Translations under genes and position numbers: made by a program
IMG/VR virus record: IMGVR_UViG_2778261666_000008
DNA from: a virus
Taxonomy: Duplodnaviria > Heunggongvirae > Uroviricota > Caudoviricetes
Direction: 5' to 3' (one strand)
DNA: 7,502 nucleotides
Notes under the pieces: generated by a model
Database searches by the model: none
What the model was told of the DNA's origin: nothing
The model's input: the letters and a program-made list of their open reading frames with translations, nothing else
Shown here: positions 2,364 through 3,432 of the stretch, piece by piece
Position numbering within the stretch: position 1 is the stretch's first letter
Layout: the number at the start of each line of letters is the position of its first letter

Positions 2364-2421
2364 TGTCACCCACGGAACAATTTTATCTGCTGACTTTCCA
2401 CCGTTAACGCGACACAACCTT
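2364..2421. repeat. Left copy of a perfect 58-bp inverted repeat (partner at 3375-3432)
   Basis: TGTCACCCACGGAACAATTTTATCTGCTGACTTTCCACCGTTAACGCGACACAACCTT at 2364-2421 is the exact reverse complement of 3375-3432, verified base by base. Flanking bases show only weak, indel-containing extension. Confidence 0.9.
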
Positions 2422-2537
2422 AATATGCCACAAAGGTTTTTGTTAATGAGCTGCATCTTTTTCTTTTCTGGGTGATGATTGTTTTATAATAAACAAATAA
2501 CAACATTTATTCTTGTAAAAGTAATAATATCTCTTTG

Positions 2538-2558
2538 GCGATCGAATTTATTGATCGC
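2538..2558 (+). promoter_or_regulatory. Operator-like palindrome GCGATC-N9-GATCGC carrying two Dam GATC sites, upstream of the 233-aa gene
   Basis: 6-bp perfect inverted half-sites separated by 9 bp, about 30 bp upstream of the AAGGAG RBS in an AT-rich region that also contains a TATAAT hexamer at 2485-2490. Function is inferred from position and symmetry only. Confidence 0.3.
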
Positions 2559-2587
2559 ATTTCAATTAAACAAATAAGGAGTTTTTT

Positions 2588-3289
2588 ATGCCAAAAATTA
2601 CCGGTGTTCTAGTGAGCCACCATGTTTTCGATATAAAAAAAGACATGGCTAATGGTTCATTCCCGAAAACATTATTTCCAGGTGCGACATTTCAGATGGT
2701 GGTTGACAATGATGTTGTCAATAATAATACGTTGGACTGGAGTGTTGTCACCAATGCGGGAGACAATTCGCTGACTGTAAATCAGGACGGCGTGGTGTCA
2801 TTTTCAAAAGATATTGATGAAAGCTGCATTGGTAAAACATTTGTTATTTTTGCGAAGGATAAAGCCACAGGGAAATTTGTGTCATCTTATTTAATTAAAC
2901 CTCATCGCTTCTTTAAACCTCGTACCGCAACGTCGGACAGATTTTACAATGCATTGTTTTGGATTGAGGATAAAAAAGGGACTGTCCCGGCACGACGCGA
3001 TATCAATAATGTCCCATTCGATGAACTGACGGGAGAAATGTTTCATGATGTAAAACGTGAAGTGAATTCCGGGCTTTTTCAGGAATGGGGATTTTTACTG
3101 TTTAGTGGGTGGACTAATCCTGTACGTGGTGATATTGGTAGTCTCGAATCAGAAATTTTCACTTTAGAAAATGACAGTATATTTATATCGACAGTCAACT
3201 CCCTCCCATACTCCAGAGATCTCCATGATGATATGGACTCCCAGTCTGCACAGGCTGTAGCGTTTTACGGGGAATCTGTTGTTTCCTGA
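2588..3289 (+). CDS. Hypothetical protein (233 aa), predicted bacterial Ig-like (Big_2-type) domain at roughly residues 35-105 plus an unassigned C-terminal domain; no signal peptide
   Basis: Strong RBS AAGGAG (2576-2581) 6 nt before the ATG at 2588; stop TGA at 3287-3289. AT-rich, in contrast to the int/xis region. The segment ...LDWSVVTNAGDNSLTVNQDGVVSFSKD...GKTFVIFAKDKATGKFVSSYLI fits the spacing of bacterial Ig-like group 2 domains, by eye only. The N-terminus MPKITGVLVSHHVFDIKKD lacks a Sec-type hydrophobic core. The only gene inside the inverted-repeat-bounded cassette. Confidence 0.7.
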   Translation: MPKITGVLVSHHVFDIKKDMANGSFPKTLFPGATFQMVVDNDVVNNNTLDWSVVTNAGDNSLTVNQDGVVSFSKDIDESCIGKTFVIFAKDKATGKFVSSYLIKPHRFFKPRTATSDRFYNALFWIEDKKGTVPARRDINNVPFDELTGEMFHDVKREVNSGLFQEWGFLLFSGWTNPVRGDIGSLESEIFTLENDSIFISTVNSLPYSRDLHDDMDSQSAQAVAFYGESVVS

Positions 3290-3311
3290 TGTTTTAATGA
3301 GTTTTTAATAG

Positions 3312-3342
3312 TCTCCGTCTTTTTAATTTAAAGAGACGGAGA
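3312..3342 (+). terminator. 31-bp near-palindromic hairpin downstream of the 233-aa gene (possible terminator or protein-binding site)
   Basis: TCTCCGTCT (3312-3320) pairs with AGACGGAGA (3334-3342), and the stem can extend into the AT-rich loop. Starts 22 nt after the stop codon. No U-tract follows on either strand, so it is not a canonical intrinsic terminator. Confidence 0.3.
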
Positions 3343-3374
3343 TTACCGGCTCTGCAACGTGAAGCCCAGGAACA

Positions 3375-3432
3375 AAGGTTGTGTCGCGTTAACGGTGGAA
3401 AGTCAGCAGATAAAATTGTTCCGTGGGTGACA
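3375..3432. repeat. Right copy of the perfect 58-bp inverted repeat (partner at 2364-2421)
   Basis: Exact reverse complement of 2364-2421. The two copies bracket 953 bp (2422-3374) containing the promoter region, the 233-aa ORF and the downstream hairpin. Confidence 0.9.

Follow-up and report, generated by a model that had tools for sequence, protein, structure and literature searches.

The AT-rich cassette enclosed by a perfect inverted repeat in the 7,502-nt stretch of viral DNA analyzed here (hereafter referred to as the window) is probably a passenger segment flanked by what is left of two inverted IS6-family (ISEas1-like) copies; situated at the hot(theta)-humD slot within a lambdoid prophage, it has since been flipped and is probably now an immobile relic. 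We propose that two inversely oriented copies of one IS6-family insertion sequence (IS) came to lie around the passenger. Both are truncated, with breakpoints that reach into theta at its 3' end and into humD at its 5' end. After truncation, the passenger was flipped at least once by an exchange inside the stub sequence shared by the two copies, presumably through ordinary homologous recombination by RecA or the prophage Exo/RecT pair. In the lineage of the window, slippage between short direct repeats of TGCT(G/A) may have removed the same 34 nt from both stubs. The present structure would thus be immobile, and its repeats relics rather than a device. The paired copies may stem either from an intramolecular inversion or from two independent IS insertions, the outer IS ends and the target duplications being gone. 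The features of the locus are listed in Table 1.

Table 1. Features of the cassette and its flanks, in window coordinates
Feature	Coordinates	Strand	Remarks
P1-type humD remnant (UmuD'-like, S24 peptidase)	2241..2371	-	about 33 codons missing at the start; 8-nt overlap of the 5' breakpoint with the left arm
Left arm	2364..2421	.	58-nt perfect inverted repeat; inverted-repeat search
humD-side IS6-family stub	2364..2419	+	last 90 nt of the IS, less 34 nt deleted internally; right terminus (...CCGTTAACGCGACACAACC) at 2419, toward the cassette
Passenger segment	2422..3374	+	953-bp AT-rich interior; both orientations among relatives
TATAAT	2485..2490	+	sole good -10-like hexamer upstream of the ORF, read off the sequence; possible promoter element
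Leader (5'-UTR) hairpin	2538..2558	+	8-pair stem
Cargo gene	2588..3289	+	233 aa; N-terminal invasin-D4-like Ig domain; C-terminal half without assignment
Hairpin 3' of the ORF	3309..3345	+	18-nt arms, 89% complementary
Right arm	3375..3432	.	58-nt perfect inverted repeat; inverted-repeat search
theta-side stub of the same IS6-family IS	3377..3505	-	last 163 nt minus the 34-nt deletion; right terminus at 3377, toward the cassette
Remnant of DNA polymerase III theta homologue (P1 hot-type)	3481..3623	-	IS6 stub replaces the 3' end, new stop at 3481; IS3-family element cuts the 5' end
Complete IS3-family insertion sequence	3624..4879	-	neighbor outside the cassette; orfA 4495-4806, orfB 3632-4459; Pfam HTH_Tnp_1 and rve

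Origin of the repeat arms

The inverted-repeat search of the window recovered the two originally predicted arms, 100% complementary and 953 nt apart; a perfect 58-nt match cannot have arisen by chance in 7.5 kb. In fuller relatives, the arms are 91-92 nt long and ~92-93% identical to each other, and the window arms correspond to these long arms minus the same 34 nt. The arms of the window are therefore 58 nt long and identical because both stubs lost the same segment, and their perfect identity does not imply the recent origin first suggested, given that the repeat is common to lineages up to 3.4% apart and imperfect in its fuller form. The long arms comprise two flank-specific alleles (theta-type and humD-type) differing at a hairpin and at an A-run, and the recurrence of the 34-nt loss, together with point changes, indicates decay of the stubs among relatives. 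The outer part of the arms is variable, and the inner 30 nt showed no variation in 29 of 29 arms examined (0 variable sites vs ~4 expected, P ~0.02 by rough estimate), which could result from conversion or some constraint.

Sequence comparison identifies each arm as what remains of the 3' end of an IS6-family (ISEas1-like) insertion sequence, with the terminal repeat abutting the cassette and the truncated body pointing outward. On the humD side, window positions 2364-2395 and 2388-2425 matched the ISEas1-type references L035 and L036 at 81-90% identity (blastn and multiple alignment), and over its last 19 nt the stub agrees at every position with the right terminus of the Serratia IS6 element in L036. 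On the theta side, positions 3401/3404-3505 matched positions 1501-1605 of L035/L036 at 83-84% identity (blastn), and the stub still codes for the C-terminal 40 residues of the transposase (L036 residues 191-230 vs window 3520-3401, 72.5% identity, E 1.4e-16, tblastn), with 72-75% identity and E-values of 1e-16 to 5e-17 across the reference transposases. Overall, DNA identity to ISEas1-type elements was ~80-84% over 102-169 nt. The theta flank plus the long arm (198 nt) matched IS6-family elements in 392 plasmid records (~80-82% over 163 nt), in which the element is annotated as 'IS6-like element ISEas1 family transposase' and is multicopy in Yersinia plasmids. The reference IS is 811 bp long, with 16-nt terminal repeats GGTTCTGTCGCATTAA (L035) and a 231-aa transposase, and the reference transposases match DDE_Tnp_IS240 (E 1e-44). 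Both arms end in GGTTGTGTCGCGTTAACGG on the cassette side, a terminal inverted repeat of the IS6 type (GGTTCTGT... type), and the two stubs align to one region of the IS in opposite orientation, right ends inward. A spurious similarity between the arms and IS6 elements is thus very unlikely, because the protein-level match (E 1e-16) coincides with a matching terminal repeat.

The arms are IS fragments rather than ISs. In the fullest relatives, the theta-side and humD-side stubs measure 163 and 90 nt, compared with 129 and 56 nt in the window. A complete IS6 element would have two ends, a DDE transposase of 213-254 aa that is intact, and direct target repeats of 8 bp, whereas only the last 56-163 nt remain here. 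Neither copy retains the DDE transposase, the left IS end or a target duplication, and the outer (left) ends with their junctions are deleted in every locus sampled. An intact parental copy was not found, the closest references being only ~80-84% identical. The expectation that the repeats stem from a mobile element was thus borne out by their IS6-family similarity, in a form that the original prediction had counted against itself: they are fragments of a known duplicated element, namely the 3' stubs of two inverted IS6-family copies.

Given that the repeats derive from an insertion sequence and that the module is carried by two prophage backbones that differ in their integrase, the cassette might also be a still-mobilizable non-autonomous unit (MITE-like or a composite transposon) that uses the 58-nt repeats as terminal inverted repeats and a transposase supplied in trans. 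We consider this extremely unlikely. With the IS termini facing inward, the repeats end on their outer side in internal IS sequence rather than in transposon ends; no target duplication was found at 2363/3433, and inverted-copy IS6-family structures cannot complete transposition (PMC7986276). Moreover, each genome has just two arm copies and none elsewhere, and outer terminal repeats, a target duplication and many dispersed copies, as in MITEs, were not observed. The arm sequence was confined to this locus: Escherichia sp. E1V33 has two copies and E. whittamii one, at a contig end, with no copies in 5,426 E. coli genomes or in JGI metagenomes, and the inner-arm 24-mer occurred nowhere else in 100,044 species-representative genomes. 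Neither an empty site nor another context was found in E. coli complete genomes, phages, plasmids or JGI metagenomes, and no flanking repeats surround the homologous genes (L009, L010 and L012) or the opposite-strand insert of the P1-like plasmid L008. Scanning viral contigs with the protein as guide yielded the same seven contigs. Because every locus has the same truncated theta/humD junctions, which lie with the cassette inside a shared ~2.2 kb block (window ~1477-3669), the unit moved with phage mosaic DNA rather than by transposition. The MITE-like vehicle of the original prediction is not supported.

Prophage setting and cargo gene

By gene order and similarity, the cassette occupies the slot of lxr in phage P1, between hot (theta) and humD remnants, in a degraded lambdoid prophage of non-coli Escherichia. 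The order in P1 is hot, lxr (on the opposite strand) and humD, and this region is hypervariable in P1-like phage-plasmids (PMC9603915). The humD remnant showed 83% and 78% identity to humD of the P1-like plasmids L007 and L008 over 2241-2371 and 2241-2368, respectively (blastn), UmuD-like PHROG matches and a 90% protein match to a Chlobot 'UmuD-like' ORF; the alignment starts at GG(C/G)TGACAGCC, and humD similarity ends at 2371. The left arm had been placed in the divergent intergenic region upstream of a zinc-ribbon regulator gene, a description that needs correcting, as this humD pseudogene remnant sits between the two on the minus strand. Similarly, positions 3498/3503-3624 matched theta genes of P1-like plasmids at 88-90% identity (blastn), with the similarity ending at ~3498-3503, and Pfam DNA_pol3_theta was assigned to the called theta gene in L003-L005. 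The adjoining IS3-family element has 36-nt imperfect terminal repeats (3624-3659 and 4844-4879). The stub truncations run into the theta 3' end and the humD 5' end identically in all loci, and the IS/humD junction lies within a 13/17 microhomology (alignment), which explains a weak similarity of the right flank to humD; the idea that this flank is a decayed inverted humD copy was rejected (local score P ~0.1 vs shuffles). A YqaJ exonuclease and RecT are encoded ~4 kb from the cassette in the prophage.

P1 has a LexA site between lxr and humD, and the long arms of L017 and L023 hold a CTGT-N8-ACAG motif that agrees with the P1-type humD promoter box at 15 of 16 positions. These matches would fit a reading in which the arms arose by inverted duplication of the humD/lxr operator region, which is SOS (LexA)-regulated, and the cassette between the LexA boxes came under SOS control; we assign this reading next to no probability. 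We rejected it since the 34-nt segment aligns to a stretch of IS6-family elements that follows the transposase stop codon and precedes the right terminal repeat, and relatives carry a different, covarying small hairpin in this post-stop region (GCCG..CGGC, GCTGCC..GGCAGC). In addition, similarity to the humD promoter outside the box was no better than in shuffles (best observed score 22-23 vs shuffle means of ~16, sd 2.1-2.5, shuffle maxima 26-34), the boxes of several arms deviate from the consensus (CTGG..GCAG, CTGA..ACAG), and no box occurs in the window.

Between the two IS6-family stubs, the interior has a GC content of 0.29-0.44, compared with 0.47-0.54 outside (200-nt windows), and a single ORF, which confirms the predicted 953-bp AT-rich, one-gene segment without a recombinase between the arms. 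The N-terminus of the cargo protein matched Pfam PF21764 Invasin_D4 (E 2e-7) and domain D4 of Yersinia invasin 1CWV (E 4.9e-8, profile search), and the AF2 model is confident at residues 1-106 only (C-terminal half, pLDDT ~30). There was also a candidate match to invasin domain D5. No signal peptide was evident in the N-terminal sequence as judged by eye. We detected no cargo homologue in 50,697 phage records (tblastn), no match to the cargo in PADLOC and PHROGs, and no family in Rfam. The cargo protein belongs to an orphan family, similar to invasin domain D4, and to a protein cluster of 36 members. In some relatives, a Scabin-like ADP-ribosyltransferase lies directly downstream of the cargo gene, as it does beside the 71% homologue in L009.

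The complete transcription unit originally described holds in part: the ORF, a candidate RBS (AAGGAG, 2576-2581), the palindrome and the downstream hairpin are present, but a consensus scan upstream of the ORF found no canonical sigma-70 promoter, only the perfect TATAAT. Sequence similarity to 79% relatives starts at 2476-2482. The palindrome itself, earlier read as an operator, behaves instead like an RNA hairpin, with 82% of cells paired (8-50% in slid controls), compensatory changes at two pairs and a covariation score matched by only 6 of 500 shuffles. As no T-run follows it, the hairpin 3' of the ORF does not qualify as a canonical intrinsic terminator, and the scan for terminator-like sites did not list it.

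Orientation of the cassette in related loci

Across 15 related loci, the cassette has the window orientation (W) in seven and is inverted (INV) in eight, as read from consensus assemblies, in which low-level switching within a culture would not show. Probes from the flank and the interior agreed in strand in the window, L003-L006 and L017, and disagreed in L018 and L019. GCA_053592715.1 is an example of a window-type strain and Escherichia sp. E1V33 of an inverted-type one. Orientations were not mixed within lineages or among near-identical loci (five W; five to six INV), so that orientation follows prophage lineage, of which there are two. Interiors differed at 0-9 positions within the INV cluster and at 8-18 between L017 or the window and INV, with L013 (W) as an outlier (32-40). 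The W copies sampled lie next to fliE (L003-L006) and with an Arm-DNA-bind_2 integrase (window, L004, L006 and L017); in the INV copy L025, a lambda-type integrase adjoins a gene of pectinesterase-like (ybhC-type) kind, and the ORFs of L018 match in length. L013 starts exactly at the outer edge of an arm, which we considered as a sign of mixed orientations and rejected as an assembler k-mer effect: with iterative de Bruijn assembly, arm-interior-arm comes out first, at k <58, and is extended only where coverage allows, and two short Logan contigs are of the same kind.

The part of the IS unique to the theta side stays beside theta in both orientations, and allele differences in the long arms follow the flank. 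The stubs thus stay with their flanks, and one flip inside the shared stub sequence (≤90 nt), after both truncations, is enough. An earlier view that the arms move along with the ends of the cassette (exchange at their outer edge, L017 vs L018) was rejected once a larger sample showed the flank-specific alleles. The tract available for exchange has only 49 perfectly matching nt in the long arms (≤90 in all), which is short for RecA.

Both orientations occur in nature, the exchange maps to the inner part of the arms, and the invariant inner 30 nt include the IS terminal repeat, a would-be transposase site. These features would be compatible with a programmed gene switch in which a recombinase acting in trans reversibly flips the cassette and changes its expression relative to prophage early-left transcription; candidates would be a Hin/Gin/Pin-type invertase encoded by a different prophage and an intact IS6-family transposase that acts on the right ends still present. 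We judge such a switch very unlikely in view of the uniform orientation of each lineage, the decay of the stubs through recurrent 34-nt loss and point changes, and the fact that a single inversion accounts for all data. The only recombinases in the window are the prophage integrase and the IS3 transposase, and only integrase, exonuclease and RecT, with no invertase, were found within ~7 kb in L025. By eye, the arms contain no hix/gix-like dyad-symmetric crossover site, the only half-site-like sequence (AAGGTTTTTG) being inside the interior. Thus, of the invertible segment first predicted, natural inversion stands and a site-specific inversion system does not, nor did a serine invertase or tyrosine recombinase emerge as the flipping enzyme. 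A variant that we rate as a long shot is that the stubs, with their intact right terminal repeats and invariant inner 30 nt, form a reversible flip-flop, driven by an IS6-family transposase in trans or by the prophage Exo/RecT, that toggles the invasin-D4-like gene between sense and antisense to early-left transcription. If true, this would be a domesticated IS relic serving as a whole-gene inverton.

Significance and comparison with known systems

An origin from two IS6-family stubs would clear up a striking lead: a perfect long inverted repeat around one gene need not mean an invertase system or a new cargo element. The locus would exemplify how IS6/IS26-type elements reshape prophage accessory regions beyond the antibiotic-resistance setting, and how IS stubs of <100 nt can still support an inversion that is later fixed in a lineage. 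It further suggests that, in E. marmotae and cryptic Escherichia clades, lambdoid prophages use the hot-lxr-humD slot of P1 for accessory genes as well. The cargo gene is the part most deserving further study.

Site-specific invertible segments such as Hin/hix, Gin/gix, Cin, Pin and fimS with FimB/FimE likewise have a ~1-kb segment between inverted repeats and occur in both orientations, but the present locus differs in having no nearby invertase, no evident short dyad-symmetric crossover site (by eye), a lineage-fixed orientation and repeats that are IS remnants. As in phage P1, a theta homologue is followed by an opposite-strand accessory gene and then humD; unlike in P1, the cargo shows no relationship to Lxr, theta and humD survive only as pseudogene remnants, and the host is a lambdoid prophage. 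The IS26-family pseudo-compound transposons (Tn4352, Tn6023 and Tn610) also carry a passenger gene between two IS6-family copies. However, functional members need directly repeated copies (PMC7986276) and at least one functional transposase, whereas here the copies are inverted, truncated and both without a transposase, and the cassette is therefore not a member. The IS6/IS26 inversion product, formed by intramolecular replicative transposition (inversion 'in trans', reviewed in PMC7986276), offers a further likeness: two inversely oriented copies of the same IS6-family element bracket a segment with like ends (here the right ends) inward, and no direct target repeats surround the unit. The differences are that the copies are cut to 90- and 163-nt 3' stubs (56 and 129 nt in the window) without transposase or left ends, that the setting is a prophage and not a resistance plasmid, and that the cargo is invasin-D4-like rather than a resistance gene. 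Taken together, the cassette is a fossil IS6-bracketed segment with a fixed inversion polymorphism, which is a known kind of structure rather than a new switch or vehicle.

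Structure of the cassette and its prophage setting

The two arms form a perfect 58-nt inverted repeat with 953 nt between them, and the interior is AT-rich (GC 0.29-0.44 vs 0.47-0.54 outside) and holds a single ORF with AAGGAG upstream and a hairpin downstream, all as originally predicted. The prediction had also named a palindromic operator; the palindrome is there (2538-2558, +), ahead of the cargo start codon by 30-50 nt, but it behaves like an RNA leader hairpin. Both stem sides changed compatibly in the ENA contig L013 and the 79% relatives (A-U to G-C and C-G to U-A, with G-U wobbles besides), and in an alignment of only 7 sequences 82% of cells were paired vs 8-50% in slid controls, with the covariation score matched or exceeded in only 6 of 500 shuffles.

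Features of the cassette and its surroundings in the window
Feature	Position	Strand	Description
Integrase	window left	-	Arm-DNA-bind_2 + Phage_integrase
Excisionase	window left	-	DUF1233
phrog_1229 gene	window left	-	
Zinc-ribbon regulator	window left	-	phrog_536
humD remnant	2241-2371	-	P1-type, UmuD'-like; by similarity to intact humD
Left arm	2364-2421		58 nt, perfect inverted match to right arm
humD-side stub	2364-2419		last 90 nt of IS6-family element minus same 34 nt as theta-side stub; by alignment
AAGGAG	2576-2581		5' of cargo ORF
Cargo ORF	2588-3289	+	233 aa
Hairpin	3309-3345		3' of cargo ORF
Right arm	3375-3432		58 nt, perfect inverted match to left arm
theta-side stub	~3505 to 3377		last 163 nt of IS6-family element minus 34-nt loss; by alignment
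theta remnant	3624 down to ~3498-3503	-	P1 hot-type DNA polymerase III theta homologue
Complete IS3-family element	3624-4879		1,256 bp; 36-nt imperfect terminal repeats

To the left, the window holds the int-xis end of a lambdoid prophage, with all of its genes listed there on the - strand. An identical cargo protein was found in the same gene context in four NCBI assemblies (L003-L006; the match of L003 is 99.96% over the full window), where the locus lies on an Escherichia chromosome adjoining fliE, followed at a greater distance by zinT, yedD and an alpha-amylase gene. Names in the 90% cluster of the protein come from E. marmotae and unclassified Escherichia, and the window DNA occurred in none of 5,426 complete E. 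coli genomes.

The left arm had been placed in a plain divergent intergenic region; instead, it is directly adjoined by a humD remnant, whose similarity to intact humD ends eight bases within the arm and which lacks the ~33 first codons. On the other side lies a theta remnant, its far end cut by the IS3-family element, for which no matching 3-bp target duplication was found. In phage P1 the gene order is hot, lxr (opposite strand) and humD, and this stretch is one hypervariable region of P1-like phage-plasmids (PMC9603915). Given this order, the cassette, between the theta and humD remnants, occupies the slot that lxr fills in P1. The P1-like plasmid pWP5-S18-ESBL-08_2 (L008) has two opposite-strand genes without flanking repeats in the theta-humD slot (1480-2427; a 'DNA-binding protein' and a hypothetical), and in another such plasmid (L007) theta is the direct neighbour of humD, at a distance of 123 nt. 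Gene turnover recurs in this slot.

Several neighbouring features also vary. Locus L017 (7352-7360) is without 158 nt that the window has (2080-2237), which fuses the humD remnant in frame with the zinc-ribbon regulator's C-terminal portion into a 109-aa ORF. In L017, L018, L023 and L025 the IS3-family end is reduced to its first 46 nt and window homology ends at 3669, suggesting IS-adjacent deletion or recombination. A YadA-type trimeric autotransporter adhesin gene (6132-7502, +) contains four tandem 78-nt (26-aa) stalk repeat units (6801-7190); its called products in L003 (454 aa) and L004 (428 aa) differ by exactly one unit, and repeat number therefore varies between strains.

Origin of the arms in IS6-family ends

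The module was found in 14 further loci (15 with the window), namely the four NCBI assemblies, L013, seven IMG/VR viral contigs and the representative genomes L018 (Escherichia sp. E1V33) and L019 (E. whittamii). Read outward from the cassette, all arms share an identical first 30 nt, followed by 28 nt in short arms (58 nt) and, in long arms (91-92 nt), by an extra 33-34 nt between these parts. Both arms are long in L023/L032 and L033 (92-93% mutual identity) and both are short in the window and L013; other loci have one of each.

When 198 nt spanning theta flank and long arm served as query in a sensitive search, 392 plasmid records matched (~80-82% identity over 163 nt). The genes at these matches bear IS6-family or 'IS6-like element ISEas1 family' transposase annotations, often with 9-14 copies per plasmid; the reference IS6 element, 811 bp long, codes for a 231-aa DDE_Tnp_IS240 transposase and has terminal repeats of 16 nt, GGTTCTGTCGCATTAA. 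The theta-side stub codes for the last 40 transposase residues (E 1.4e-16), and both stubs terminate in ...CCGTTAACGCGACACAACC, the IS right terminus, with 19 nt identical to a Serratia IS6 copy. These alignments resolve the 58-nt repeat into 56 nt of IS end and two further bases that match. Each stub has its IS terminus on the cassette side, with the truncated IS body pointing outward. At the humD junction, IS and antisense humD share 13/17 microhomology, which also accounts for the repeat's weak continuation beyond the arms, a similarity that is not significant.

At first, the motif CTGT-N8-ACAG in the extra 34 nt was taken for a LexA box that had been duplicated from the humD/lxr operator. 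This reading was dropped, because alignment to IS6 elements identified the motif as a short hairpin after the transposase stop codon and because, beyond the box, similarity to the humD promoter was no better than in shuffled controls. IS6-family relatives have a small hairpin overlapping or just past this codon (ISEas1-type references L035 and L036, both 1590-1625; long arms of L017/L023), with stems differing by element (GCCG/CGGC, GCTGCC/GGCAGC, GCTGT/ACAGC), and in some copies it resembles a LexA box by chance. Separately, the 34-nt loss sets TTAACG and TAAAAT at 16-nt spacing in each short arm, a weak (9/12), outward-pointing promoter-like match (2380-2407, -; 3389-3416, +) that is absent from long arms; the left one faces a GTG-started humD remnant ORF at 2373.

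Orientation of the interior and its history

Orientation was typed with probes for the two flanks and the two interior ends, whose strands were compared. Seven of the 15 loci have the interior oriented as in the window (W), and in eight the flank probes lie on one strand and the interior probes on the other (INV); the segment has thus inverted in nature. INV interiors group closely, at 0-9 differences; those of the window and L017 differ from this group at 8-18 positions, and that of L013 (W) is an outlier (32-40). The sampled W copies L003-L006 adjoin fliE, and an Arm-DNA-bind_2 integrase accompanies W copies in the window, L004, L006 and L017. In the INV copy L025, a lambda-type integrase adjoins a pectinesterase-like (ybhC-type) gene, and ORFs of equal length occur in L018. 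Common to both prophage backbones is a ~2.2-kb block (~1477-3669). Orientation tracks lineage, no group of close relatives among the consensus assemblies of the 15 loci has mixed orientations, and a single inversion event is enough to account for the data.

IS6-family elements move by replicative transposition, which, acting within one molecule, would be the simplest origin of a passenger between inverted copies with like ends inward. Alternatively, two independent IS6-family insertions may have produced the inverted pair; the outer IS ends and target duplications that would separate the two origins are deleted. Deletions into theta and humD later truncated both IS copies. The truncation junctions are identical in 15/15 loci, and the truncations therefore predate the flip. 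Homology available for the flip is 90 nt or less (49 nt perfectly matching in long arms); ordinary homologous recombination is the inferred route, and the prophage codes for YqaJ exonuclease and RecT ~4 kb away. Theta-side and humD-side long arms are distinct alleles, each staying with its flank in both orientations, which places the exchange within the inner part of the arms. The extra segment is flanked by short direct repeats (TGCTG; TGCTGAC in L019). W loci have lost it from the humD-side arm, most INV loci from the theta-side arm, and the window and L013 from the theta-side arm too, a pattern that calls for no fewer than two or three losses, or else for inter-arm conversion.

Cargo gene and comparison with known elements

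The N-terminal domain of the cargo protein is invasin D4-like (Pfam E 2e-7; Yersinia invasin 1CWV E 4.9e-8), with a sub-threshold hint of invasin D5 near a conserved GLYQEWG motif. No signal peptide was seen when the N-terminus was read by eye, and the structure model is confident for residues 1-106 only. The family (14 clusters) is confined to Escherichia, with no phage, PHROG or PADLOC match. Homologues at 70-71% lie directly upstream of a 422-424-aa Scabin-like ADP-ribosyltransferase gene (L009 5001-7034; L014 299-2335), in L009 also beside a 329-aa tyrosine recombinase; in L015 and L016 the toxin gene is missing and the homologue carries a frameshift. One possibility is that the window's gene is the orphaned partner of such a toxin module. 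Repeats like the arms were not found around relatives of the cargo gene at 43-79% identity, whose DNA resembles the window only over 2476-3344.

The proposal of an invertible or mobile module is thus borne out in that the segment has inverted and its repeats derive from a mobile element, but not as a site-specific switch or MITE-like vehicle. No invertase was found in the window or the neighbouring region of L025, and orientation is uniform within lineages in consensus assemblies, where rare within-culture flipping would not show. The arm sequence occurred only at this locus in the searched genomes, and neither a target duplication nor an empty site was found. We found no support for an active switch or present mobility; the cassette is a fossil segment bracketed by IS6 remains, and its inversion polymorphism is fixed. 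Functional IS6 pseudo-compound transposons carry their IS copies in direct orientation (PMC7986276), whereas those of the cassette are inverted, and it is therefore not one of them. Its structure type is already well known, and the cassette is a new instance.
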